A stretch of DNA of 37,623 nucleotides. It comes from a virus (lineage: Duplodnaviria > Heunggongvirae > Uroviricota > Caudoviricetes). Where the stretch lies: positions 1 through 37,623 of IMG/VR virus record IMGVR_UViG_2645727529_000001; one strand, 5' to 3'. Below are positions 3,949 to 27,479 of the stretch, piece by piece. The notes below the pieces were generated by a model, which saw only the letters and a program-made list of their open reading frames with translations, did not search any database and was not told the origin of the DNA. Each line of letters begins with the position of its first letter. The first letter of the stretch is position 1. The translations under genes were made by a program, and so were the position numbers.

Positions 3949-4802
3949 GCACCATCCTGAAATGGGCGGGAAATAAAACTGCCATAATGTCCGAACTGAA
4001 AAAACATCTTCCTGCTGGCCCGCGACTGGTTGAACCTTTCGCGGGTTCCTGTGCTGTGATGATGGAGACGGATTATCCCAGCTATCTGGTTGCGGATATT
4101 AATCCTGATTTAATCAACCTCTATAAAAAGGTTGCCGCTGATTGTGAATCGTTTATATCTCGCGCCAGAGTTTTATTTGAGATCGCAAACAGGGAGGTGG
4201 CTTATTACAACATAAGGCAGGAGTTTAATTACTCAACTGAAATTACTGATTTCATGAAAGCGGTATATTTCCTGTATCTCAATCGTCACGGTTACCGTGG
4301 TTTATGTCGCTATAACAAGAGCGGGCATTTCAACATTCCCTACGGTAATTATAAAAATCCGTATTTCCCTGAAAAAGAAATTCGCGCATTTGCAGAAAAG
4401 GCCCAGCGAGCAACGTTTATCTGCGCCAGCTTTGATGAAACGCTGGCGATGTTGAAGGCGGGGGATGTGGTGTATTGCGATCCGCCGTATGACGGTACGT
4501 TTTCCGGCTATCACACTGACGGCTTCACTGAAGATGACCAGTATCACCTGGCATCTGTTCTTGAACATCGGTCATCAGAAGGACATCCGGTCATTGTTTC
4601 TAACAGTGACACATCCCTGATCCGTTCGCTGTATCGCAATTTTACTCACCACTACATCAAGGCAAAACGCAGCATCGGTGTGGCAGCTGGCGAGGGTAAA
4701 TCAGCAACAGAAATCATCGCTGTTTCCGGGCCGCGCTGCTGGGTAGGATTTGATCCTTCGCGTGGCGTGGATTGTTCCGTCGTGTACGGAGTGCGTGCAT
4801 GA
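3945..4802 (+). CDS. dam: DNA adenine methyltransferase (Dam family)
   Basis: N-terminal LKWAGNK AdoMet motif and DPPY motif ([10 protein letters not shown]); ATG 3945 overlaps the TraR-like stop. Confidence 0.85.
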
Positions 4803-7213
4803 GCTATGCTGATATGAACAACTGCAGCGGCTTTAACGAGGTCGCCGCAGCATTCTCATGGAACAGCCCGAAAAAGGCCATTAACCCTTATCTGGACCCG
4901 GCGGAAGTTGCGCCGGTTTCTGCGCTTTCAAACCTGATCACTCTATACGCTGCCGATAACGAGCAGGAACAACTGCGCCGCGAGGCACTGAGTGATCAGG
5001 TCTGGGAGCGTTATTTCTTTAATGAATCCCGTGATCCTGTCCAACGCGAAATGGAGCAGGATAAGCTAATTAGCCGGGCAAAGCTGGCGCATGAGCAGCA
5101 GCGTTTTAATCCAGACATGGTCATTCTGGCGGACGTTAACGCCCAGCCTTCCCATATCAGCAAGCCGCTGATGCAACGTATTGAATACTTCAGCAGCCTG
5201 GGCAGGCCAAAGGCTTATTCCCGCTATTTGCGTGAGACGATTAAGCCATGTCTGGAACGACTGGAGCATGTACGCGACAGTCAGCTATCCACTTCTTTTC
5301 GCTTTATGGCAAGCCATGAAGGGCTGGACGGCCTGCTGATCCTGCCTGAAATGAGTCAGGATCAGGTGAAGCGCCTGTCTACCCTTGTTGCCGCGCATAT
5401 GAGCATGTGCCTTGATGCAGCTTGTGGTGATTTGTATGCCACCGATGACGTTAAGCCAGAAGAAATCCGCAAGACATGGGAAAGGGTGGCGGCGGAAACC
5501 CTGCGTCTGGATGTCATCCCTCCTGCGTTTGAGCAACTCCGCCGGAAAAGAAACCGCCGTAAACCCGTACCCTATGAACTCATTCCGGGTTCGCTGGCGC
5601 GTATGTTGTGCGCCGACTGGTGGTATCGGAAATTATGGAAGATGCGTTGCGAATGGCGGGAAGAGCAGTTGCGTGCTGTTTGCTTGGTCAGCAAAAAAGC
5701 ATCTCCCTATGTCAGCTATGAAGCCGTGATGCATAAACGTGAGCAGCGCCGTAAGTCGCTGGAGTTTTTCCGTTCTCATGAACTGGTGAACGAAGACGGC
5801 GACACGCTGGATATGGAGGACGTGGTAAACGCCAGTAGTAGCAACCCGGCGCATCGCCGCAATGAGATGATGGCATGTGTTAAAGGTCTGGAGCTTATCG
5901 CGGAAATGCGCGGTGACTGCGCCGTTTTCTACACCATCACCTGTCCGTCACGTTTCCATTCCACGCTAAATAACGGCAGGCCCAACCCGACTTGGACAAA
6001 TGCGACGGTAAGACAAAGCAGTGATTATCTGGTCGGCATGTTTGCTGCATTTCGTAAGGCGATGTACAAAGCCGGATTGCGCTGGTATGGCGTGCGGGTG
6101 GCTGAGCCGCATCATGACGGTACAGTTCACTGGCACCTGTTGTGTTTTATGCGCAAAAAAGACCGCCGCGCCATCACTGCATTACTGCGTAAGTTTGCCA
6201 TCCGTGAAGACCGCGAGGAGCTGGGCAATAACACGGGGCCGCGCTTTAAGTCTGAGTTGATTAACCCGCGCAAAGGAACGCCGACAAGCTACATCGCGAA
6301 ATATATCAGTAAGAACATTGACGGGCGTGGTCTGGCTGGCGAGATCAGCAAGGAAACGGGTAAATCCCTGCGTGATAACGCTGAATACGTGAATGCCTGG
6401 GCGTCTCTGCATCGTGTTCAGCAATTCCGCTTCTTTGGCATTCCGGGGCGTCAGGCTTACCGTGAACTGCGATTGCTGGCTGGTCAGGCGGCAAGGCAAC
6501 AGGGTGACAAAAAAGCAGGTGCGCCGGTACTGGATAACCCGCGCCTTGATGCAATCCTGGCTGCTGCTGATGCTGGTTGTTTTGCCACCTACATCATGAA
6601 GCAGGGCGGCGTACTGGTTCCCCGTAAATATCACCTCATCAGAACTGCTTATGAAATCAACGAAGAGCCGACCGCCTATGGCGATCACGGCATTCGTATT
6701 TATGGCATCTGGTCACCTATTGCAGAGGGCAAGATCTGCACTCATGCCGTGAAGTGGAAAATGGTTCGTAAGGCCGTTGACGTTCAGGAGGCGGCAGCCG
6801 ACCAGGGCGCTTGCGCCCCTTGGACTCGTGGCAATAACTGTCCCCTTGCTGAAAATTTGAACCAACAGGAGAAAGATAAATCAGCTGATGGGGACCCCAG
6901 AACGGACATTACCAGCATGGATGACAAGGAGTTGCACGATTACCTGCACAGTATGAGCAAAAAAGAGCGCCGGGAACTGGCAGCAAGGTTACGCCTGGTG
7001 AAACCGAAACGGCGTAAAGACTACAAACAGCGAATTACAGACCATCAGCGACTGCAGCTCGTGTATGAGCTGAAGTCCAGAGGATTTGATGGCAGCGAGA
7101 AAGAGGTTGATTTACTCCTTCGCGGAGGCAGTATTCCGTCAGGAGCAGGCCTGCGTATCTTCTATCGGAACCAGCGTTTGCAGGAAGATGATCAGTGGCG
7201 GAACCTGTATTAA
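4799..7213 (+). CDS. A: Replication initiation endonuclease gpA (rolling-circle HUH type)
   Basis: HUH-like HWH ([10 protein letters not shown]) and Tyr motif YIAKYISK; about 800 aa; ATG 4799 overlaps the dam stop. Confidence 0.9.
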
Positions 7214-7837: not shown

Positions 7838-8127
7838 TAGTTTGGGCAATGAGTGAAATAAGGCGTAAGGCGTAAGGTGGGGGGGCATTTTGATAAATGA
7901 TCGTCCGCTTTGTGCCAGAAGCGAACGTTTCTTCTGCTATCTTTCGTCAATTAACGAATGGCAGACTAATTTGCAACGGATAATCTGAATTTTGTAAGAT
8001 TATGGGTATTCCTATAATATTTACCAATAATAACCTTACAATGTACACTACCTATTGAATTTTCCATAGTTGGCCTTTGGCTCTACTTACCATCTATGTT
8101 TATGTATTTTATCAAAATGGACTAAAA

Positions 8128-10020
8128 ATGCACAATACGTACATCAAAGACTATATAGAATATTACCTTAGCCTTAAAACTGAACCTCAATACGCCATTA
8201 TGCTTAAAGGTGCTTGGGGATCAGGTAAAACTTGGTTCATTGAACGAGTTCTTGAAGAATATAAGCAAAAGCATTCAGAGTTCAAATTTCTTAAAGTGAG
8301 TTTGTATGGCGTCAACTCTATTGAGCAGATTGAAGATGAGTTCTATCGTCAACTTCATCCTATTCTATCAAACAAAGCCCTTATCTTTGGTGCAAATGTA
8401 CTAAAAAATACGCTTAAGGCTACTTTCAAGATCGATTTCAATGGCGATAATAAGTCTGACGTAGATGTCAATGCCAGTGTCCCCACCATTAATCTTAGCG
8501 ACTTTAGCAGAGAACCAGATGGTTTTGTGCTGGTCTTTGATGATATCGAGAGAGCTGGTATAGATTTACCAATCTTATTTGGATATATAAATCACTTTGT
8601 AGAAGTAAACGGATACAAAGCGATCCTGGTTGCCAATGAAGAAGAAATAATCAACAGAGAAAAGCGAATAAATAATGATGATGAGAAATCTAGCAGTGAA
8701 TACATAAGAACAAAAGAAAAGCTTGTAGGTAAAACATTTGAAGTAACGTCAGATTTACCTAGTGCTTGTAATGTTTTCTTGGGCGTAATTAGTAGTTTAC
8801 ACGTTGCTAATATATTTAAAGAAGATATGCAGACCATAGAACACCTCTATGTGTCGGCGAAATATAATAATCTAAGACATTTGAGGCAGTTCTTTCTTGA
8901 TGTACAACGCATCATTTCCCTTTTGGGAGATAAATATGTCAGCAACGACGATTTTATGAAAGTATTTTTCCAGCAGTTATTAATTTTCTCGATGGAGTAC
9001 CGGGGAGGGAACCTTAACTACGAGGATTTCAATTCAATCGGCAATGTAAATTATAGTATGTTTTTAGATAAAGGGCGTACCAAAACTAAGTATGACATGA
9101 TCGTCGAGAAATATTCATCACCTGTATTAACCGAGACGTTACTGGATGGTGCGTACTGGAGAGAGCTAATCTGTGATGGAAAGGTAACGCATGATCTTCT
9201 CGCTCAGCTGGATATTACGCGATTTTTTAGAAGCACCGATGCCCAAGCATGGGAGTATTTGTGGAACTATCGAGAACTTAATGAAACTATGCTTAATGAA
9301 CAGTACGCCATTGCCAAGGATAATCTATTTTCAGGTAAGATCACTTCCTTAGGTGAACTCCTGATGACCGCGAGTATTTTGCTGGCATTGGCGAAAGAAG
9401 GTTTAACCACAGATGCTGTTGATGACATTATAAATGAGACAAAACATCATATAGATATTTATTACAATGGATTAGGACCTGAAGATATACATCAGGAGTA
9501 TGCGCAAAGACATTATAATGAGTTAATGGCATGGCGTGGCTTTGGTTTTCTTGACAGGGATAGCGATGAATTCAAACTCATTATTGAGCATATTAAGATA
9601 GCGCAGAAGAAACGGTTTGATGAATCAATTCCGGAGTTTGCATTGAAGTTCAGCGATGAGTTGCAAAGAGGGAATTTATCGTTTGTATCTGAATTGTGTC
9701 ATTCTAATAATAGGCAGCTAAATCTTCATAACGTGCCTTTTTTACACTTGGTTTCTCCTGAAGTTTTCATTGAAAGCTATAGGAAACTTGACCCAATCAT
9801 CATGAGGAAACTGGCATTTAGCTTGAGGGATCGTTATTCTGATAGGGATGCCAGAACCAGACTGACCGAAGAATACAACTGGTTGATTAGCCTAAAAGAG
9901 ATAGCTGTAGATTTCACTCAAAACGCAGCCAATAACTCCTTTCAGGTTTTTCATGTAAAGTTTTTTATTGACTATGCACTAACTAATGCAATCAAATTAT
10001 TTACTGAGGGAACTGATTAA
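8128..10020 (+). CDS. KAP-family P-loop NTPase (630 aa), cargo gene at the tin/old-equivalent hotspot
   Basis: Walker A GAWGSGKT near the N-terminus, Walker B-like VLVFDDIERAG; strongly AT-rich versus backbone; single gene with its own terminator. Confidence 0.75.
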   Translation: MHNTYIKDYIEYYLSLKTEPQYAIMLKGAWGSGKTWFIERVLEEYKQKHSEFKFLKVSLYGVNSIEQIEDEFYRQLHPILSNKALIFGANVLKNTLKATFKIDFNGDNKSDVDVNASVPTINLSDFSREPDGFVLVFDDIERAGIDLPILFGYINHFVEVNGYKAILVANEEEIINREKRINNDDEKSSSEYIRTKEKLVGKTFEVTSDLPSACNVFLGVISSLHVANIFKEDMQTIEHLYVSAKYNNLRHLRQFFLDVQRIISLLGDKYVSNDDFMKVFFQQLLIFSMEYRGGNLNYEDFNSIGNVNYSMFLDKGRTKTKYDMIVEKYSSPVLTETLLDGAYWRELICDGKVTHDLLAQLDITRFFRSTDAQAWEYLWNYRELNETMLNEQYAIAKDNLFSGKITSLGELLMTASILLALAKEGLTTDAVDDIINETKHHIDIYYNGLGPEDIHQEYAQRHYNELMAWRGFGFLDRDSDEFKLIIEHIKIAQKKRFDESIPEFALKFSDELQRGNLSFVSELCHSNNRQLNLHNVPFLHLVSPEVFIESYRKLDPIIMRKLAFSLRDRYSDRDARTRLTEEYNWLISLKEIAVDFTQNAANNSFQVFHVKFFIDYALTNAIKLFTEGTD

Positions 10021-10082
10021 CATTTTGTTGATTAACATAGGTAATATTATTAGAAGTACTAGACATGGTCAGTAAAATTATT

Positions 10083-10110
10083 AAAGTCCGCTTCGCTCGA
10101 AGCGGACTTT
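10083..10110 (+). terminator. Intrinsic terminator after the KAP NTPase gene
   Basis: 12-bp perfect stem aaagtccgcttc/gaagcggacttt with a 4-nt loop, followed by a T-rich stretch. Confidence 0.6.
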
Positions 10111-10305
10111 GTGCTTTATAAAAACGAGAGTTTTGTTTTTCAAGCGGTCATTCGGTTACGGGATTTCACTTCCCCCGTAAGTGCATGACTATGCCGCATG
10201 AGATCGCATGATCGTTTGCGGATCGTTTTTGCTAAGGTCCGCCAGAACTGGCGGGCTTTTGCGTAGATCATGCAGGTGCATGAAAACCACTACATAAAGT
10301 GGGCA

Positions 10306-10324
10306 GGCGTGGCGGGGATACGAG
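10306..10324. other. Putative cos (cohesive-end) site
   Basis: GGCGTGGCGGGGATACGAG resembles the P2/186 19-nt cohesive end as I recall it (GGCGAGGCGGGGAAAGCAC); lies in a GC-rich island between the two AT-rich cargo genes, upstream of Q as in P2. Confidence 0.4.
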
Positions 10325-10544
10325 CGCGCGCAACGAGGTGAAATAGCAAAAACTCGGCACAGCCTACGGCCCGCTAGCGGCTTCAAATTGAAATGGTGAG
10401 GTGCAGCAGCAAAAAAAACGCCCCACAGGAAGTTGTTGAGGTTGTTTATTGAGGGAATTGGCTTAAGCGGTAAAACACAAACATTGCAACTTGTGCATGA
10501 AATTGATACATTGTGCGTAATGTATCTATATTGCGGGGTATTTT

Positions 10545-11216
10545 ATGGCTTTCAGAGCGGAAGAAGCAGCAGCATCGAATTTCGAAAATGCTTACAGATA
10601 TCTAGTTCCACAAGGTTCAAATCAGGAGATGCGTTCGAAAGTTAGGGCGAAGCTCAAAGAAATTGTTGAAGAATGTGGGCCAGTAGTGGATGGGTATCCA
10701 GCATGGCATCCTTTTTTGCTGGAAAGAGATAAAGCTATTTGGGCGCCTATGACTCCCAATAATACTCCTAGCTTTAAATACCTGGACCACACGGTCTATT
10801 TCAGGAACGGCATTCTTACCTGTCCTTATGGTCATGGGGTTGATGAATTTATAGCTGGTATAAAACGTCTAAAGCACACGGATGCCCATTTCTCTATTGA
10901 GAAGATTGATGACGTTGTGCTTTATAATGACAACGCCGTCCCGTTGTTAATAAAATGCCATTGGCTTATTTCGGAAGATATGGAAGAGGATGGCACCATT
11001 CCAGCAAAAGCAGCAATTGGATTGATGCTTGAAAGCGAGGTTCCTAACTGGCGGCATGCAGTTTATTGTGAAAATTGGGAAGATATGCGCGGGCAGTTGA
11101 TGGGATATCCGCACGGTGCCAGATCATCTCTATTTGTTAATCAGCAGACAGGACAGAAAATGAAAAACTTCTGGAATCAGCTGATTAAGACCGGAATTCT
11201 TGGGGAAGAGCGATAA
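10545..11216 (+). CDS. Hypothetical protein (223 aa), cargo gene between the cos-like site and the portal gene
   Basis: Clean ORF, lower GC than backbone, followed by a strong terminator; no family recognised by eye. Confidence 0.6.
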   Translation: MAFRAEEAAASNFENAYRYLVPQGSNQEMRSKVRAKLKEIVEECGPVVDGYPAWHPFLLERDKAIWAPMTPNNTPSFKYLDHTVYFRNGILTCPYGHGVDEFIAGIKRLKHTDAHFSIEKIDDVVLYNDNAVPLLIKCHWLISEDMEEDGTIPAKAAIGLMLESEVPNWRHAVYCENWEDMRGQLMGYPHGARSSLFVNQQTGQKMKNFWNQLIKTGILGEER

Positions 11217-11229
11217 TTTCTTGAGGCTT

Positions 11230-11264
11230 AGCAGCGCCTTTAACAAGCAGAGGCGCTGCTTTTT
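11230..11264. terminator. Bidirectional hairpin terminator between the 223-aa gene and Q
   Basis: 10-bp perfect stem agcagcgcct/aggcgctgct followed by a T-run. Confidence 0.65.
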
Positions 11265-11268
11265 AAAT

Positions 11269-12318
11269 TTAGCTATCGTTGTTTGTGTCTATTCCCAGCG
11301 TGTAGGGCTCGAAGCGGATCACCTCTTTACCTAGCCAATAATTCAGCTCCTGCAGCCGCTTTTGCAGCGGCATCAGTTCATTGCGGACGAAGACACGGCT
11401 CGCTTTTTCCACATCCCCAAAACCCCCAACATTATTCGGCATAATCCCCATCATCTGTGGCGGAACACGATGCGCGGCCATCATGTCATCACGACTCACG
11501 CTCTTGATGTTCAGAAATTCATCTTTCGCTGCGACTTCTGACAACGGGATGATCTGAAGCCCGTCCTTTTTGCCGTTAGGCGAGTACATAAACAGGTTGC
11601 GGAAGTTGCCTGGACCTTTGGCGCTTTTCATGGCATTACGGAGGTTGTTTATATCCTCCTGGTTCTGCGCGGCGTCGGTCATGTACATGATGAAGCCTGC
11701 GTGGCTGCCGTTAATGTAATACTTGCGGCGGAACAGCGTGGCGGACTCGTTGAGTAGGGCTGACGGAATGGCAGAAAGATAACCGGGCAGGCCGTAGATC
11801 TCCTGGTTGATATCCGGTTCCATCAGGTGAAAAATGCTGCCTTTCGTGAACTGATACGGTTGCGTGGTCATGCCGTATTGCACAAACCAGTAGGTATCCA
11901 GGTCTAATCCGCGTCGGGTGTATTTTGCCAGGGCAGGTTCAAGGGCGATAACTTCACCGAAGCGGTTCGTGCGTTTCTCCAGGTAGGCGTTACCAAAAAC
12001 CAGATAGTCCTGCACAAAACGTGAAAACGCCTGCTGGCTGAGCAGCGGATGAGGGATGTAGGTGCTGGTCAGTATGTTGCACTTTACGGCAATCGGTGAG
12101 CTGTGGTGCACGGCGGCGCGAAAGGTTCGCGCCAGCCCGTCGAAACTCACTGGTGGCTCATACCAGCGGTCCATCTGTACGCATTCCACATAGTCCAGTA
12201 ATTCGCGGCGGTCCAGAACAGGAACGGGATCACCGAAGCTGAATGCTTCGGCTGAAGTTTGGTTTTTATGCTGGATCTGGTTCGTCGCCGCAGCGCGGTT
12301 TTTCTTACTCTTTCCCAT
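11269..12318 (-). CDS. Q: Portal protein gpQ
   Basis: About 349 aa, P2 Q-like; ATG overlaps the P stop. Confidence 0.9.
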   Translation of the reverse strand: MGKSKKNRAAATNQIQHKNQTSAEAFSFGDPVPVLDRRELLDYVECVQMDRWYEPPVSFDGLARTFRAAVHHSSPIAVKCNILTSTYIPHPLLSQQAFSRFVQDYLVFGNAYLEKRTNRFGEVIALEPALAKYTRRGLDLDTYWFVQYGMTTQPYQFTKGSIFHLMEPDINQEIYGLPGYLSAIPSALLNESATLFRRKYYINGSHAGFIMYMTDAAQNQEDINNLRNAMKSAKGPGNFRNLFMYSPNGKKDGLQIIPLSEVAAKDEFLNIKSVSRDDMMAAHRVPPQMMGIMPNNVGGFGDVEKASRVFVRNELMPLQKRLQELNYWLGKEVIRFEPYTLGIDTNNDS

Positions 12319-14084
12319 CAAAAAATCTCCACAATATTGCTGGTATTGGCGGACTCGCCCTGCAGCGGTTCGTTAAACAGTGCGTGCATTGTTGCCCAGG
12401 CCAGATCGGCATGGCTGGCTTCTTCGCTGCGGCTGGCTTCATAGGTTGGGCGGTTGCCGCTGGCGGTGGTGGCGCGACGGATTGCCATAAATGACTGCGC
12501 TATGTCGGTGTGTCCGGCGTCAAACTCCAGACGACGGTGACTGATAATGTCGTAGGCCTTGAGTACCAGGGCGTTTTTAACGTTGGGGTTGTAGACAAAC
12601 TCCCGGACGGCTGGAAAAAACGCTTTCACGTTCTCGTAAACCCCGTGACCGACACCCGTCGAGTCGATGCCGATATATGTCACGTTGTACTGTTCGGTCA
12701 GTTTTTTGATGGCGTCCGCCTGGGCGCGGAAGTCCATCCCGCGCCACTGGTGGCGCTCAAGAATACGGAACTTACCGCCCGGCACGGCTGGCGGTGCCAC
12801 CACCACGCATCCGGCGCTGTCGCCGTTCTGCGTACCTTTTGCCGGGTCATAACCGATCCACACTTCGCGCCACCCAAACGGGCGAAGGGCCAGTGCATGA
12901 AAGTCGGTCCAGACTTCCCAACTGTCCACCATGCACGCCTGCAGCTCGCTGAGCGGAAACACGGACGCGAGATCGTCCACAAACTCGCACATCAGCAGGT
13001 TCTGGTATTCGTCCGGGCTGTACTCCATGCGCAACTGGTCAAGGTCGAACAGGTTGCAGCCGCCGCGCACCGCATCTTCCACGGTGACTATCTGGCGGTA
13101 TTGCCCGTCTGCGCACAGCAGGCCGGGGGCCAGATTGCTGTGGGACAGGTCGATGTCCACCTTGTCAGCTTTGTTGCGTCCACGGTTGAACAGCGCACCG
13201 GACCAGAACGGATAAGCACTGTGGGTCAGGCTGGATGGCGTGGAAAAATAGGTTTGTCGCCATTTCTTGTGAATAGCCATCCCGGAAGCCACTTTGCGCA
13301 GCTCCTGGAATTTCGGTATCCAGAAATATTCATCCAGATACAGGTTGCCGTGATAACTCTGGGCCGTGCGGGCATTGGTGCCGAGGAAGTAAAGCGTGGC
13401 TCCGTTAGGAAGCACCATCGGATCGCCTTTTAGCTCCACCTCGACTTCTTTGGCGAAGTCGATGATGTATTGTTTAAAGACGTGGGCCTGAGCCTTACTG
13501 GCAGAAAGGAAAATCTGGTTGCGTCCGGTAAGCAGGGCGTCAATCAGGGCTTCACGGGCAAAATAGAAGGTCGCGCCGATCTGGCGAGACTTCAGCAGGT
13601 TGCGGATGCGGTTGGTTTTTCCGGCTTCCCACCAGTGGCGCTGGTAGTTGAACATGGAGGAATGGAAGATTTCTTCCAGCTTCTCAATCTGCTCATCGGT
13701 GAAAACATTCTTTTCCGGCTGACGGCGTGGGCCTTTATTGCGGTTGGCGACGTTAGGGTTTAAGTCGGCTTCGTTGCCGCCATTGTTAAACTTGCCGATC
13801 CGCGCGTGGCGCTCAGACTGGCGCGCCAGCAGGTCAATCTCTTTGAAATCTTTCCCTTCTTTGTGCTCCTTCATGATGAGCTGGCAGTAGCGTGCTGCGG
13901 TGGTGAGCTGCATCTGGTCCAGCGGCCCATAGTCACCCCACTTGTCGCGTTTTTTCCAGCTGTGAACGGTTGCAACTTTCTCGCCCAGCATTTCAGCAAT
14001 GCGGGCTACGCGGTATCCCTGAAAGTACAGCAGCATGGCCTGCCGACGGGGATCGAGATCTGCGGGTGTCAGTGTGGTGTTCAT
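12318..14084 (-). CDS. P: Terminase large (ATPase) subunit gpP
   Basis: 588 aa, P2 P-like; synteny. Confidence 0.9.
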   Translation of the reverse strand: MNTTLTPADLDPRRQAMLLYFQGYRVARIAEMLGEKVATVHSWKKRDKWGDYGPLDQMQLTTAARYCQLIMKEHKEGKDFKEIDLLARQSERHARIGKFNNGGNEADLNPNVANRNKGPRRQPEKNVFTDEQIEKLEEIFHSSMFNYQRHWWEAGKTNRIRNLLKSRQIGATFYFAREALIDALLTGRNQIFLSASKAQAHVFKQYIIDFAKEVEVELKGDPMVLPNGATLYFLGTNARTAQSYHGNLYLDEYFWIPKFQELRKVASGMAIHKKWRQTYFSTPSSLTHSAYPFWSGALFNRGRNKADKVDIDLSHSNLAPGLLCADGQYRQIVTVEDAVRGGCNLFDLDQLRMEYSPDEYQNLLMCEFVDDLASVFPLSELQACMVDSWEVWTDFHALALRPFGWREVWIGYDPAKGTQNGDSAGCVVVAPPAVPGGKFRILERHQWRGMDFRAQADAIKKLTEQYNVTYIGIDSTGVGHGVYENVKAFFPAVREFVYNPNVKNALVLKAYDIISHRRLEFDAGHTDIAQSFMAIRRATTASGNRPTYEASRSEEASHADLAWATMHALFNEPLQGESANTSNIVEIF

Positions 14085-19680: not shown

Positions 19681-21432
19681 CTATTGGTTGAATATAAAGC
19701 TGATAATATTTTCAGGAGTGAGCTCTATGTTTTTTTTATTAAGTTTTTGAATGTACATTTTATATTTCATTTCAACGTTTCGGAAGCCTTGCGCAACAGA
19801 AAGTATTTCTACAGGATGAGATGAAAGCTTTATTAAGGAGTTAATGACTGCATCTAGGTAGATGTGAGCATGTTCAACTAAAACATTTGTTTTTGATGGG
19901 GTTTTTCCAGTGTGAACTATCAAGTTTCTAGTTCTATATATTCTCCTAATTTGCCAGTTGATTCTTTCTGCATGATTTTTAAGTGCCTGATACATAGTAT
20001 CAGTTGAGGAAATTAAATTGCTAATATATTCAAATCTCTCTTTCAATAACGGAAATTGTGATAGTTCTATCTTAAACTGATTGATGCTAGGGGCATGTTC
20101 TTGCGAAGCAACAAGAATTACAAATGATTTGGCTGCATCGCTATCTCCAATTAGTCTTAGAAGTGACATGGTTCGAGGATGATTCCATCGTTGTAAGTCT
20201 TTTATAAGATTCCTTACTAGGTCTTCAATATAATTCAGGTTTAAAAATGGTGTTAATGAATTAACGATATGTTCTATCGTGGATTGTTCTTCTTTTTTTG
20301 ATTCGTCGGGGATGAGTGATTCAATAGCAATCCATAAATTTAAAAGCTGATTTTCTACAGCATTTGTCTGTAGTGCCATTGAATGTAATTGTACACTTCT
20401 TATGAATTTATTGAAAGAATCCTTGCGCATTCTGAAATTATTCATGAATTGTTCGAGTCTTCTGCTTGCGTGTTCCTGAACCAGATCCTTGCAGCGGTGC
20501 ATTGGGTTTATGCTGCTTCTTATATTGATTTTTTCACCATTTTCACTAACTACAATGTTCTCTGCAGACCATGATGCTTCTTGCTTATGATGATAGAGAG
20601 AAAGCAAAGTTGATGCGAGCTTTAAGTTTCTTTCAGCTACCCTTCTAGCCGTGAATGGATCAAGTGCTTTAACATGCTTAACTAAAATAGTTCGTTGTTC
20701 ATGATTATCGAAGAAATCTGTTTCATTAATATTTTCGGGGGTTTCAAGAACAACCTCAATTTCTAATTGTGATAAGCATGGAGTAATATAACTAAAAGAT
20801 TTTTCAGCATTGAAATAAACTGAATATTCTTGTGTCTCTGAGGGGATGTTCTCTAGGAATGTAATAATCTCTTCATTTGAACTGATCTCTCGTTCTCTTT
20901 GGAAGAAATGTTTTTTTAGACTTTCCATCAAATATTCTTGACTTAATCCTTTTGATATTAGATGGGTAATCAACAGTCTTGTAAACTTTCGAATTTTATT
21001 TGGGTTGTATTCTGAAGTTATTGTAGAGCAAAGTTCACTGATGAGTTTGCTTTCATAATTACCAACATTAAGTTGAACTCTCAGTAACTCAAGAGTTATT
21101 TTTAGATTTTTATTTCCTAACTGATTGTTTTGGAGTTGATCTAAAAATGAACCTAAAGGGTTTTTTAGAAGACTGATTGCGATGTCATCATTCTTAATAT
21201 TTTTAGTTAATTCGTCAATGACGTGGGATATATGTGCGGGGCTTATGTTGCCTTTTTCTATATCATCGATTGTTGATATTGCTTCTATACATAAACTTGG
21301 AGTGTTCATTATAGAAGGTTTATATGTACTATGGGTGTAATCAAAGAGAAGTTCCTCCATTAACTCGGTGAAATAAATAAGCGCAGTGCATTGTTCAATA
21401 TGATTCCAGTTGTGTAGTCTTCTAAATTTCAT
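19681..21432 (-). CDS. Large AT-rich cargo protein with C-terminal HEPN-like Rx4H motif; candidate abortive-infection or defence RNase
   Basis: ORF 19681..21552 (TTG start); preferred ATG at 21432 (MKFRRL...) leaves the P_V promoter region free; motif RIYRTRNLIVHTG near the C-terminus; convergent with S and divergent from V at the P2 orf30 position. Confidence 0.6.
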   Translation of the reverse strand: MKFRRLHNWNHIEQCTALIYFTELMEELLFDYTHSTYKPSIMNTPSLCIEAISTIDDIEKGNISPAHISHVIDELTKNIKNDDIAISLLKNPLGSFLDQLQNNQLGNKNLKITLELLRVQLNVGNYESKLISELCSTITSEYNPNKIRKFTRLLITHLISKGLSQEYLMESLKKHFFQREREISSNEEIITFLENIPSETQEYSVYFNAEKSFSYITPCLSQLEIEVVLETPENINETDFFDNHEQRTILVKHVKALDPFTARRVAERNLKLASTLLSLYHHKQEASWSAENIVVSENGEKINIRSSINPMHRCKDLVQEHASRRLEQFMNNFRMRKDSFNKFIRSVQLHSMALQTNAVENQLLNLWIAIESLIPDESKKEEQSTIEHIVNSLTPFLNLNYIEDLVRNLIKDLQRWNHPRTMSLLRLIGDSDAAKSFVILVASQEHAPSINQFKIELSQFPLLKERFEYISNLISSTDTMYQALKNHAERINWQIRRIYRTRNLIVHTGKTPSKTNVLVEHAHIYLDAVINSLIKLSSHPVEILSVAQGFRNVEMKYKMYIQKLNKKNIELTPENIISFIFNQ

Positions 21433-21476
21433 ATTAATACCTTGTTTTGTGAAGCTTGAATTTACCTTTAGCGCAT

Positions 21477-21498
21477 TGTTTGTTGCTTCATACAAACA
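21477..21498. promoter_or_regulatory. Ogr/Delta-type late-promoter site(s) for P_V (two overlapping TGT-N12-ACA dyads)
   Basis: TGT 21477-21479 with ACA 21492-21494, and TGT 21481-21483 with ACA 21496-21498; 43-64 nt upstream of the V start. Confidence 0.55.
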
Positions 21499-21540
21499 TG
21501 GTTTGTTTGTGATCTCAAGTGTTTGATTAAGAATTTGAGA

Positions 21541-22119
21541 ATGAACGTACAACTCACGGAAATCATGCGCCTTATCACCAATCTGATCCGCACAGGGGTA
21601 GTCACCGAAGTGGACCGGGAAAACTGGCTTTGCAGGGTGAAAACGGGCGAGCTTGAAACCAACTGGATCAGCTGGCTGACGCTACGTGCCGGAAATGCCC
21701 GGACATGGTGGCGACCATCGGAAGGTGAGCAGGTGGTGCTGCTGAGTCTGGGAGGCAATCTGGAAACCGCCTTTGCGTTGCCCGCTGTCTATTCGAATCA
21801 GTTCGCGCCACCTTCGACGTCGGCGGACGCCTGCGTGACAGAACATCCTGACGGTGGCTGGTTTGAATACGAACCCGCCACCGGGCGCTGGTATGTCAGG
21901 GGCATCAAATCCATGGTCATTGAGGCTGCCGACAACATCACCCTGAAAACCAGTGAGTTTGTGCTGGAGGCTGACCGCACGCGTATTAACAGCGAAGTAG
22001 TGATCAATGGTGGTGTTACCCAGGGCGGCGGTGCAATGAGTTCTAACGGAATTGTGGTTGATGCACATCAGCATACTGGCGTCCTGAAAGGCGGCGACAC
22101 AACCGGAGGCCCGGTATGA
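21541..22119 (+). CDS. V: Baseplate spike protein gpV
   Basis: ATG 21541; P2 V-like. Confidence 0.85.
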   Translation: MNVQLTEIMRLITNLIRTGVVTEVDRENWLCRVKTGELETNWISWLTLRAGNARTWWRPSEGEQVVLLSLGGNLETAFALPAVYSNQFAPPSTSADACVTEHPDGGWFEYEPATGRWYVRGIKSMVIEAADNITLKTSEFVLEADRTRINSEVVINGGVTQGGGAMSSNGIVVDAHQHTGVLKGGDTTGGPV

Positions 22120-25473: not shown

Positions 25474-26075
25474 TGCATAAAGCAATATTAAATAGTGAGC
25501 TTATTGCAACAAAGGCAGGGGATGTTACCGTTTATAACTACGATGGTGAAACACGGGAATATATTTCCACGTCAACTGAATATCTTGCTGTTGGTGTCGG
25601 TATTCCGGCATGTTCCTGTCTTGATGCACCTGGCATACATAAGGTTGGTTATGCAATCTGTCGTTCTGTGAATTTAAATTCATGGGAATATGTGCCAGAT
25701 CATCGCGGTGAAATCGTCTATAGCACCGAAACAGGAGAATCGAAAGAAATCACAGCTCCGGGTGATTATCCTGAAAATACAACCACTATCGCCCCGTTAA
25801 CGCCATACGATGAATGGAATGGTGAGAAATGGGTGACAGATACCGAGGCACAGCACGGCGCAGCAGTAGATGCAGCAGAAGCACAGCGCCCGTTGCTGAT
25901 TGATACTGCAATGGCCTCCATCAGTCTGATTCAACTGAAATTACAGGCCGGACGGAAGCTGACGCAGGCAGAAACAATCCGCCTTAACGCTGTGCTGGAT
26001 TACATTGACGCGGTGACGGCAACAGATACCAGCACAGCGCCGGATGTCATCTGGCCTGAACTGCCGGAGGCGTAG
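25473..26075 (+). CDS. G: Tail fibre assembly chaperone gpG (expressed orientation)
   Basis: 200 aa; follows H with ATGA overlap; G-like conserved C-terminus. Confidence 0.8.
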   Translation: MHKAILNSELIATKAGDVTVYNYDGETREYISTSTEYLAVGVGIPACSCLDAPGIHKVGYAICRSVNLNSWEYVPDHRGEIVYSTETGESKEITAPGDYPENTTTIAPLTPYDEWNGEKWVTDTEAQHGAAVDAAEAQRPLLIDTAMASISLIQLKLQAGRKLTQAETIRLNAVLDYIDAVTATDTSTAPDVIWPELPEA

Positions 26076-26508
26076 GCCATTCAATATCTGGCGCACCGGA
26101 AGTATCGATCAGCTCCAGTGCGTCCAGATAATCCAGCCACAAATTATATTGTGCCAGTTCCTCACCTTTCAGACGACCGATAGCTGCTTTACCAGGCCAT
26201 TGCTTACCGTTCATGTATTCGTTGGCATGGTCAATTCTCGACTTTTTCTCTGAGTCAGCCGCAGCAAGTTGTTCTTTATGCGTAGGTGACGGAAGATCTA
26301 CCCAGCAAGGCAACCCATCATCACCAATGCCACGCATTTTACCCTCAGGAGCGTTTCCCATGAAAACCAGTGCATCTTCAGCATTTATATTGATGCCGTC
26401 TGACGGCCATGTGCCAGCAGTTAAATAATCATATTTCAGTGCCACAAGATAAAAAGCATTTTCCGTCGGGCTGAATACATAGTCGACCATTAATATCCCA
26501 CTCCCCAT
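26047..26508 (-). CDS. Alternative tail fibre assembly chaperone (G'), inverted cassette
   Basis: 153 aa; C-terminus (...DALELIDTSGAPDIEWP) parallels G (...DAVTATDTSTAPDVIWP); opposite strand inside the invertible segment. Confidence 0.7.
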   Translation of the reverse strand: MGSGILMVDYVFSPTENAFYLVALKYDYLTAGTWPSDGININAEDALVFMGNAPEGKMRGIGDDGLPCWVDLPSPTHKEQLAAADSEKKSRIDHANEYMNGKQWPGKAAIGRLKGEELAQYNLWLDYLDALELIDTSGAPDIEWPTPPAVQAR

Positions 26509-26846
26509 ACTGCCACTGTTGAATTAGATTTCGTGTATGCGCAAGCGGCTTTGAATTTGACCCGGTCAACAATCGCTGCGCTAACAAAAGGGGCTCCATT
26601 AGTCGCGTAGATCACAGAATTGACCAGCGAAGGATTGATGGAAAGGCAAGCATTAGGAAAGGCAACCGGCCATGAGTCATCAACAACGACCATATTACCG
26701 TCGGTAGATTGCGGCACTGATAGCGTCTTCCACTGAAGCAATGCTATTCGTTGTACTCCACCAATTAATACTGGAATAGTGATGTTACCTGCACTGCTGG
26801 CTAATGCTGTCGCAGCAGGCATTTTCGCTGCTTCTCCCAAACCAAC
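26490..26846 (-). CDS. Alternative tail fibre C-terminal cassette (Hv'), silent in this orientation
   Basis: Minus-strand ORF whose VGLGE codons coincide with the right hix-like site, mirroring LGLGE of H at the left site; would fuse to the H constant part after inversion. Confidence 0.6.
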   Translation of the reverse strand, partial: VGLGEAAKMPAATALASSAGNITIPVLIGGVQRIALLQWKTLSVPQSTDGNMVVVDDSWPVAFPNACLSINPSLVNSVIYATNGAPFVSAAIVDRVKFKAACAYTKSNSTVAVWGVGY

Positions 26847-26857
26847 GTTTATGAAAA
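26832..26857. repeat. hix/gix-like 26-bp inversion crossover site (right)
   Basis: TTCTCCCAAACCAACGTTTATGAAAA; inner 14 bp are the exact inverted repeat of 25013-25026. Confidence 0.65.
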
Positions 26858-26906
26858 TGCAGAGATAACGGCTAACTGGCATCATCTCCGGTTTTTATTC
26901 AGGGGG

Positions 26907-27479
26907 ATGATCATGCTTATTGGCTATGTACGCGTGTCAACAAATGACCAGAACACCGATTTGCAACGCAATGCACTGAACTGTGCGGGATGTGAGCGGA
27001 TTTTTGAGGATAAAATCAGTGGCACCAAGTCCGACAGACCGGGGCTGAAAAAGCTGCTCAGGACACTATCGGCAGGAGACACGCTGGTTGTCTGGAAGCT
27101 GGACAGACTGGGGCGCAGTATGCGGCATCTTGTTACGCTGATAGAAGAGCTGCGCCAGCGTGGCGTGAATTTCCGAAGCCTGACTGACAGTATTGATACC
27201 AGCACCCCAATGGGCCGTTTCTTTTTTCATGTCATGGGTGCCCTGGCTGAAATGGAACGCGAACTGATAGTTGAACGTACCAGGGCGGGGCTGGCTGCAG
27301 CTCGTGCTAAAGGCAGAGTAGGTGGACGCCGTCCTAAGTTGACCAGCGAACAGTGGGCACAGATTGGGCGTTTACTCGAGGCCGGAGAATCAAGACAGCG
27401 TATTGCACTGATTTTTGATGTAGGCGTTTCTACCATTTATCGAAAATTTCCGGCAAATAAGAACAATAAATCTCCCTGA
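26907..27479 (+). CDS. Serine DNA invertase (Hin/Gin/Pin/Cin family)
   Basis: N-terminal IGYVRVSTNDQNTDLQ resolvase catalytic motif and C-terminal HTH; AGGGGG RBS favours the ATG at 26913. Confidence 0.9.
   Translation: MIMLIGYVRVSTNDQNTDLQRNALNCAGCERIFEDKISGTKSDRPGLKKLLRTLSAGDTLVVWKLDRLGRSMRHLVTLIEELRQRGVNFRSLTDSIDTSTPMGRFFFHVMGALAEMERELIVERTRAGLAAARAKGRVGGRRPKLTSEQWAQIGRLLEAGESRQRIALIFDVGVSTIYRKFPANKNNKSP

Follow-up and report, generated by a model that had tools for sequence, protein, structure and literature searches.

An unnamed 223-codon cargo gene beside cos in an Escherichia coli P2/186-like prophage and the putative operator conserved with it

What is carried in the space between the cohesive-end site (cos) and the portal gene of a P2-like phage, and does it take part in the conflict between phage and host? 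The question is raised by the IMG/VR virus record IMGVR_UViG_2645727529_000001, of which positions 1 to 37,623 were analysed (37,623 nucleotides (nt), the whole stretch, referred to here as the window). Its sequence is that of a P2/186-like prophage of E. coli, in which integrase, CI, CII, gpA, portal, terminase, capsid and tail genes are present, and the gene in question, here called the cargo gene, lies beside cos next to the homolog of P2 portal gene Q. That the cargo gene moves alone among unrelated phages (P2-, HK97- and Mu-like), plasmids and islands, and that a predicted promoter and putative operator are conserved with it across phyla, are new findings of this analysis. We give a probability of about 0.4 to the reading that it is an autonomous, horizontally mobile, single-gene conflict cassette (a 'moron') in a Q-proximal sub-slot.

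The cargo gene and its slot beside cos

The features that define the locus are as follows.

10545-11216, + strand: cargo open reading frame (ORF), ATG start, 223 amino acids (aa), the same coding sequence as RefSeq hypothetical protein WP_000885505.1
10306-10324, strandless: cos, 19-nt cohesive-end sequence GGCGTGGCGGGGATACGAG, placed by alignment with the annotated cosL/cosR of P2 (NC_001895) and by its conserved flanks
11269-12321, - strand: portal gene, P2 Q homolog (Pfam Phage_portal, E = 2.5e-18; RefSeq), convergent with the cargo gene
10331-11302, strandless: swappable cargo cassette, approximate limits from blastn breakpoints against sister prophages
8077-10020 (RefSeq start 8128), + strand: KAP P-loop NTPase, 647 aa (PDC-S49, listed by PADLOC as a candidate defence family of one gene, E = 5e-161; phrog_4740), on the gpA side of cos

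The initial annotation had placed a 223-aa ORF, with its N-terminus quoted, between a 'cos-like' sequence and Q. The ORF is present, starts with ATG and agrees with the RefSeq coding sequence, and the cos-like sequence is a true cos, matching the annotated 19-nt cohesive end of P2 with conserved flanks. From cos to the Q stop codon the distance is 944 nt in the window and 167 nt in P2, where the interval contains only the terminator tQ; an extra ORF has thus been inserted near cos, as had been proposed. The lower G+C content attributed to it was recovered (0.42–0.44, against 0.51–0.62 in the portal and terminase genes), and in the packaged linear genome it would, as proposed, lead the gene order from the left end.

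The cos-proximal gpA–gpQ interval of P2-like phages is a defence hotspot (Rousset et al. 2022, PMC9122126), and the supplementary table of that study holds the exact arrangement 'hypothetical + DinI + KAP_NTPase + hypothetical'. In the window gpA lies at 4772-7213, and the cargo ORF occupies the Q-proximal part of the hotspot, in a variable slot limited by cos on the left and by the portal gene on the right. The place is already known and catalogued as 'hypothetical'; the gene itself is unnamed and in no described family. The earlier description of accessory cargo between cos and Q is therefore kept, while its treatment as a notable oddity is not, since the slot lies in a published hotspot.

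In blastn comparisons with sister prophages that share the KAP NTPase and cos (a region 95–99.8% identical among them), homology stops at 10330-10352 and resumes at 11303-11399; against phage records it ends at about 10331-10342. The left break lies about 10–30 bp from the cohesive end and the right one inside the last 35–130 nt of the portal gene, so that cargo exchange also replaces the C-terminal tail of the portal protein. Recombination promoted by cos ends has been put forward as a speculation (PMC9122126), with which these breakpoints are consistent. Five different contents were seen behind one KAP NTPase and cos. The alternatives to the intact gene were an IS30-disrupted copy, a 97-aa hypothetical protein, a DUF4145 protein with a weak PD-T7-4 match (E = 1e-6) and ShosT/ShosA (E = 4e-14 and 3e-70); the Q-side slot can hold a validated defence system (ShosTA). 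Judged from these alignments, cargo on the Q side of cos occupies a separate slot, exchanged independently of the old/tin side. The KAP NTPase gene has its own terminator at 10082-10111, and elsewhere in E. coli prophages varied cargo follows it across cos.

A comparison of 10000-11400 with 5,426 complete E. coli genomes gave at least a partial match in 1,246, of which 23 hold the whole stretch. The presence/absence comparison called for by the initial annotation accordingly gives 23 carriers in about 1,246, the gene being absent from P2 and from about 98% of the E. coli genomes in which the prophage flanks find a match. The 23 loci are 99.4–100% identical, represent one lineage and all have the KAP NTPase upstream. 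The IS30-disrupted copy was found in E. coli MS20659 (NZ_CP082073.1, locus 4885-6100), a clinical isolate in which the element has split the reading frame after about codon 113; such a natural knockout indicates that the cargo gene is dispensable for prophage maintenance.

Like the P2 hotspot cargo described before (old, tin and the Rousset systems; PMC9122126, PMC13586616), the cargo gene lies in the gpA–gpQ interval beside cos, varies among near-identical prophages, shows homology breaks at cos and has defence genes as neighbouring and alternative cargo. Unlike that cargo, it stands on the Q side of cos (old and tin are on the A side), has no homology to a validated or candidate defence family and also occurs in unrelated phages, plasmids and islands. 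ShosTA (PRTase toxin and DprA-like antitoxin; E. coli ECCHD184) shares with it the slot, the flanks (KAP NTPase, cos, portal) and a transcription unit of its own, but is a toxin–antitoxin system of two genes, whereas the 223-aa gene is single and has no partner and no recognisable domain.

Predicted promoter and putative operator upstream of the gene

The control signals around the cargo ORF are listed below.

10484-10512, + strand: predicted sigma-70-type promoter, -35 TTGCAA at 10484-10489, 17-nt spacer, -10 TACATT at 10507-10512
10492-10503, + strand: putative operator box 1, TGTGCATGAAAT, in the promoter spacer, position weight matrix (PWM) score 15.2 bits
10508-10519, - strand: putative operator box 2, ACATTGTGCGTA as read on the + strand, over the -10 hexamer and the likely start, PWM score 11.8 bits
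10533-10538, + strand: Shine-Dalgarno-like GCGGGG from the upstream alignment, 6 nt upstream of the ATG (GTGAGG in most close relatives)
11230-11270, + strand: intrinsic-terminator-like hairpin from a consensus scan, 12-bp stem and T-run, starting 14 nt past the stop codon

The promoter-like region noticed at first could be narrowed to the conserved -35/-10 pair at 10484-10512 by the alignment of relatives, in which the hexamer positions are kept down to 54% protein identity and across differing contexts. A promoter from a consensus scan (10503-10532) was rejected in favour of this pair, as it would leave the Shine-Dalgarno sequence no room. The terminator had been described as strong and bidirectional; a strong hairpin with a T-run is present at 11230-11260, and it scores as a terminator on the + strand only. 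No known RNA element was found in an Rfam search.

Upstream alignment showed that about 75 nt are conserved even at 54–60% protein identity, in differing contexts, and that repeated boxes occupy the 90 nt before the ATG across the family. K-mers were counted in 88 dereplicated upstream regions and in three control sets from the same loci. GCATGA was found in 52 of the 88 regions (2, 1 and 3 in the controls), CGCATGA in 35 (0, 0 and 2) and TGCGTAA in 28 (1, 0 and 0). The boxes were modelled by a PWM, YRYGCAYRAAA, with an invariant G-C-A core, and are TAYGCRTA-like. At least one box was scored in 88/88 regions and at least two in 83/88, with a mean of 2.47 per region against 0.02–0.18 in the controls, although the regions scored also served to train the PWM; the k-mer, control and collection-scan results do not rest on it.

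The spacing of the boxes is stereotyped. The cores of convergent pairs lie exactly 19 bp apart in 63 of 70 cases, as do those of boxes 1 and 2 in the window, and neighbouring boxes in the same orientation lie 20 bp apart in 29 of 34; a convergent pair at 19 bp was found in 76 of the 88 dereplicated loci. The consensus upstream layout is TTaCGCATgAAATTg.taTTTTATGCGtAAaa.t..taTaTtaTGcgta, in the order box 1, TTGaca-like -35, box 2 and then a -10 overlapped by box 3, and the boxes are all close to the palindrome TTATGCATAA. In enterobacterial members the boxes follow the -35, box 1 falling inside the spacer and box 2 extending across both the -10 and the start site.

Correctly spaced pairs are essentially confined to the gene's own promoter, with 295 found there, 3 elsewhere in 1.8 Mb of flanks and 4 in shuffled loci; all 3 of the pairs elsewhere belong to loci with over-extended ORF start calls. 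The only such pair in the window is at 10495. When 2.9 million viral contigs were scanned for CGCAYRAAA-N6-TTTYRTGCG, 13 matches were obtained, 3 of them directly before family genes; the remainder are chance palindromes (among them terminator hairpins and two inside a Rad50-like phage gene). A regulon was considered and rejected, as no second operator occurred within 8 kb in 128 loci or elsewhere in the window. The operator accompanies phage, plasmid, phage-plasmid and island copies of the gene.

Other explanations of the motif were also set aside. A perfect palindrome over the -10 region, GATACATT-N6-AATGTATC (10505-10526), is not conserved in relatives and is probably a chance by-product of the two putative operator boxes. 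None of the known regulator motifs compared (DnaA box, LexA, NrdR, FNR, sigma-54) fits the GCA core and the 19/20-bp spacing, and a literature search for the box motif returned primers only. The left flank of cos (10275-10286) holds GGTGCATGAAAA (P2: GGTGCATTAAAA) and has the 10-mer GTGCATGAAA in common with operator box 1 (10492-10503); this resemblance may be coincidental, being a single box without a correctly spaced partner.

Genomic contexts and conservation of the protein family

All ORFs surrounding the gene in 128 loci, which comprise 87 homolog groups, were clustered. No neighbour family is generally shared among them, and across the 87 groups there is no shared adjacent partner gene of the kind expected for a type II toxin–antitoxin system. 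Neighbours of the P2 type (portal, terminase or gpA) were found in 17 loci of 6 divergent homolog groups. A Raoultella homolog (88% identity) occupies the same cos–Q slot with a DUF4145 gene in place of the KAP NTPase, and a Serratia homolog (63%) stands beside the portal remnant of a degraded P2-like prophage, near HicB and Eco57I-type genes. In a Klebsiella HK97-type prophage the homolog lies between the lysis cassette and the HNH/terminase genes, and in a Mu-like prophage of Roseibium it separates the Mu F/G-like genes from the head genes that come next. The Mu F-like head protein beside this last homolog is fused to a PBECR2 domain, a nuclease-type domain of 'polyvalent' proteins. Further sites are lambda-type phages with GpA terminase, prophage ends by integrases, and positions beside orphan DNA methylases.

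Outside phages, the homolog of an Aeromonas phage-plasmid adjoins a PD-T4-5 abortive-infection (Abi) gene, that of a Marinobacter island lies near mer genes and a pyocin S module, and homologs on IncF-type plasmids are next to repA; plasmids and islands that lack capsid genes are among the carriers. On the IncFII-type plasmid NZ_CP097702, the one plasmid viewed in full, psiA, psiB, ardA and a methylase gene lie at 2–10 kb and the homolog adjoins repA at 29.6 kb, with some 20 kb separating it from the psiB/ardA leading region. The hosts comprise Alpha-, Beta- and Gammaproteobacteria, Verrucomicrobiota, Bacteroidota and Cyanobacteria.

Some records call for separate mention. A copy 100% identical to the E. 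coli gene was found on a 4.5-kb contig of a metagenome-assembled genome (MAG) labelled 'Bacillota bacterium', and a copy with 42% identity on a 6.6-kb contig of a MAG labelled 'Methanomassiliicoccaceae archaeon'; both are probably mis-binned mobile-element contigs and not part of the true host range. The viral contig IMGVR_UViG_2565956658_000001 (59 kb) holds two copies of the gene about 44.5 kb apart with identical upstream regions, and may be either a prophage in tandem or a circular genome whose assembly ran beyond unit length. In nine E. coli chromosomes (e.g. NZ_CM144243.1, 1626507-1626613) a stretch of 107 nt inside another 'hypothetical protein' is 77.6% identical to codons ~38–73 and presumably represents a more distant family member in another context.

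Phage morons (e.g. lambda bor and lom) are self-contained units of promoter, ORF and terminator. The cargo gene resembles them in having promoter- and terminator-like signals of its own, a lower G+C content than the backbone, presence or absence among relatives, and typical cargo sites (lysis–terminase junction, prophage ends, cos). It differs in that its cis-regulatory module is conserved with the gene across phyla, to our knowledge not a described property of morons.

The 223-aa protein had been reported to match no family, and sensitive profile and structure searches uphold this. There was no match in Pfam, PHROGs, PADLOC or NCBIfam, none in sequence and profile searches of the PDB, and none by tblastn in 50,697 deposited phage genomes; a Pfam scan of all 40 members of the family alignment gave no consistent domain. 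The AlphaFold2 model is confident (predicted local distance difference test (pLDDT) 92, predicted template modelling score (pTM) 0.88), and its fold had no match in the PDB or BFVD. By these comparisons the cargo ORF belongs to no described family. The accession WP_000885505.1 was not found in full-text papers.

Relatives are nevertheless numerous. There are 203 at cluster level in a collection of 5.8 billion proteins, all of about 222 aa and none named, and 286 among 1.84 billion representatives at 50% identity; homologs are full-length on 200 plasmids, and relatives occur in 166 of 185,579 species genomes and in 53 IMG/VR contigs. Identity stays at 40–48% across phyla. Against the Raoultella and Klebsiella-group orthologs the ratio of nonsynonymous to synonymous substitution rates (dN/dS) is about 0.08, which indicates strong purifying selection.

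Invariant or nearly invariant positions in the family alignment are F3-R4, G45-P46, Y51-P52-x-W54-H55-P56, D81-H82-T83, T92-C93-P94-Y95, E176, W178 and G187-x-P189-x-G191-x-R193-S194-S195-L-F. The three motifs singled out in the initial annotation survive in part. In CPYGHG, C93-P94-Y95 is invariant and the following GHG varies; in KCHWL, C138 and W140 are kept in the core family and lost in divergent branches; in CENWED, E176 and W178 are conserved and the Cys is variable. C138 is invariant in the core family and replaced in the IncF, Vibrio and Aeromonas branches, which weakens the Cys2His2 zinc site considered for H55, H82, C93 and C138. The universal polar core consists of His55, Asp81-His82, Cys93 and Arg193-Ser-Ser, and would be more in keeping with an enzyme, or with a ligand/metal site, than with a protein of purely structural function.

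The family is mildly acidic, with a median isoelectric point (pI) of 5.65. The N-terminal 45 residues are acidic (pI ~5), while the C-terminal 50 are basic (pI ~9.3) and form the most conserved block (PHGARSSLFVNQETGQxxKxxWN). An N-terminal ribbon-helix-helix (RHH) domain was tried and rejected, as the region is acidic and a profile of residues 1–50 found no RHH family in the PDB or Pfam, giving only spurious designed-repeat matches. Longer members (272–325 aa) were inspected as a possible fusion clue and contain no Pfam domain. Among them, Vibrio campbellii pLMB143 and its relatives form a divergent branch of 311–325 aa with a C-terminal extension of about 95 aa that has no Pfam domain; this branch has lost C138 and most of the operator.

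Two further features of the window lie apart from the slot.

19681-21552, - strand: ApeA, 623 aa, near-identical to Ec2ApeA (PDB 9hxi), a protein of antiviral defence, RefSeq 'hypothetical protein'
26047-27479: two convergent tail-fibre-assembly genes and a recombinase-family gene adjoining the tail-fibre gene

The ApeA ORF is inserted between the virion-morphogenesis gene S and the baseplate gene V, is absent from strain MS20657 and occurs in 11 complete E. coli genomes. The segment 26047-27479 is the usual invertible host-range segment of P2-like phages.

Possible role of the cassette and rival explanations

If the cargo gene is a mobile conflict cassette, protection of the lysogen against other phages would be its most likely role, with a probability that again stays below one half. 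The protein would bind as an oligomer to the boxes, which are spaced by about two helical turns along a single DNA face, and the bound protein would repress its own promoter. Self-repression would give a burst of expression on entering a naive cell and then a low steady level in the lysogen, a pattern compatible with a potentially toxic defence effector and with an early counter-defence factor alike. The protein itself would be a cytoplasmic enzyme or ligand sensor built around His55, Asp81-His82, Cys93 and Arg193-Ser-Ser. Self-binding is the simplest explanation of the boxes because the loci have no further gene in common and their hosts belong to several phyla. T202-G203-Q204 and W210-N211 are lost in branches that do not have the full operator, a weak hint that helix 200–216 may contact DNA.

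Defence or exclusion is favoured because the slot and its neighbours are defence cargo, because the unit is oriented and equipped for expression from the prophage, and because the fully examined plasmid copy lies outside the leading region. The proposal of an 'early-acting accessory or anti-defence' function is thus retained as far as accessory cargo is concerned, while its anti-defence part found no specific support (the plasmid copy is about 20 kb from psiB/ardA, and the slot holds defence genes); we consider defence more likely than anti-defence. A fuller joint claim would make the protein a new single-protein conflict module, with a catalytic or sensing Cys/His centre and a novel type of DNA-binding surface for its own three-box operator, and the whole a portable unit of promoter, operator, regulator and effector with an anti-phage or anti-defence role in hosts of several phyla. 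This claim is tentative, and we regard it as possible but doubtful.

Several observations weigh against the reading of the gene as a self-regulated defence cassette. The defence assignment rests on guilt by location, and of the hotspot systems that Rousset et al. cloned, only about one in three proved active (PMC9122126). PADLOC-DB v2 (2023) gave 0 defence or candidate-defence families at E <= 1 for the cargo gene, although its models for PDC-S49, ShosTA, PD-T7-4 and PD-T4-5 are matched by neighbours and by other occupants of the slot, and the gene was not found in those DefensePredictor supplementary lists that are in text form. No known DNA-binding fold was detected in profile searches of the protein, which is acidic overall with only its C-terminal 50 residues basic. 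In the IncFII and Vibrio branches that diverge most, a single weak box is all that is left of the operator, and the box counts carry the circularity of the PWM noted above. Orphan type II DNA methylases, which would fit counter-defence or establishment, are neighbours in 10 loci of 5 divergent groups, and in elements of Beta- and Gammaproteobacteria that resemble integrative and conjugative elements (ICEs) the gene lies beside 700-aa ParB_N and DUF932 proteins.

These last neighbours belong to the first of the rival explanations, in which the promoter fires at entry (zygotic induction), the enzyme disables some component or signal of the host's defences, and the gene then shuts itself off. The logic of a self-repressed promoter and the place of the gene at the left end of the packaged genome would suit such an establishment function, as would its many conjugative plasmid carriers (158 of 200 plasmid matches) and a small single-domain enzyme whose 40–48% identity across phyla suggests a universal target. 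The IncFII-type plasmid copy, however, lies beside repA and well outside the leading region, the slot in P2-like phages holds defence cargo, the gene sits among late genes in HK97-like and Mu-like prophages, and neither its sequence nor its fold is similar to any solved anti-defence protein. We consider this explanation unlikely.

Comparably improbable is a sensor, regulator or host-physiology gene outside phage conflict, such as an enzyme-repressor responding to a metabolite, metal or redox state. BirA, PutA and NikR are bifunctional enzyme or sensor repressors, and a His/Cys/Asp centre together with a dedicated operator recalls them; the half-sites of NikR, GTATGA-N16-TCATAC, resemble the GCATGA-N10-TCATGC of the family, with a different spacing. 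As in these proteins, one polypeptide would pair such a centre with repression of its own promoter, but no similarity of sequence or fold to them was found. Mercury or copper resistance genes are among some of the neighbours, and many morons are not defence genes. Against this explanation, the gene has no local regulon, its neighbours are inconsistent, and it is confined to mobile elements and hotspot positions.

The third rival concerns the mechanism and not the role: the boxes might be bound by a host or other trans-acting factor instead of the gene's own product, as the acidic protein with no recognisable DNA-binding domain would allow. This too has the odds clearly against it, for the same boxes and spacing recur in six bacterial groups, whether the carrier is a phage, a plasmid or an island, and the loci share no other gene, the geometry was not found before other genes, and the motif has no match in the literature. 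Autoregulated operators are known for type II antitoxins, restriction–modification (R-M) controller (C) proteins and phage repressors. Like theirs, the putative operator of the cargo gene consists of two or three pseudo-palindromic boxes that follow one another at about two turns of the helix and overlap its own -35, -10 and start; unlike them, the gene has no toxin, R-M or cro-like partner, and the protein, with 223 aa and an enzyme-like conserved core, has no detectable helix-turn-helix, RHH or AbrB-type domain.

That the cargo gene is a second component acting with the upstream KAP NTPase (PDC-S49) across cos is very unlikely. The KAP NTPase precedes it in 23/23 complete E. coli genomes with the gene, and both appear together in the Rousset table, but those loci are a single lineage, the KAP terminator and cos separate the two genes, the same KAP NTPase is found with ShosTA, DUF4145, the 97-aa gene, AIPR, PIN_12 or HSDR_N instead, and the copies in Raoultella, Serratia, Klebsiella, Roseibium and Marinobacter have no KAP NTPase with them. 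The two outcomes that the initial annotation had named as fatal to its proposal, a conserved packaging or head gene of 186-like phages and a decaying ORF, can be dismissed almost entirely: the gene adjoins cos and the portal gene and lies within the head module of the Mu-like prophage, yet it has no PHROG match and none in the phage records, is absent from P2 and nearly all flank-matching genomes and occurs on elements that have no capsid genes, while decay is excluded by the dN/dS ratio, the invariant motifs and hundreds of full-length homologs.

P2/P4 hotspots have a proven record of yielding new immune systems, and in about one fifth of P2-like phages the main defence locus holds only unknown genes (PMC13586616). 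An unknown gene in the P2 hotspot is unsurprising; the portable operator is unexpected, and the candidate is unusually clean and constrained. Among such genes it stands out by its strong constraint, its spread across phyla and element types, a confident model unmatched by solved or viral structures, and its precise putative operator. The cassette, of about 0.8 kb and self-contained, is a good, unproven candidate for a new phage–host conflict gene, and the operator offers a direct biochemical handle on it. Should the conflict role be true, the defence and counter-defence repertoire would gain a new protein family, possibly with a new DNA-binding or enzyme fold, and the Q side of cos would be explained as a cargo slot apart from the old/tin side. 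Should it be false, the gene would still be a widespread, autoregulated accessory gene of mobile elements.

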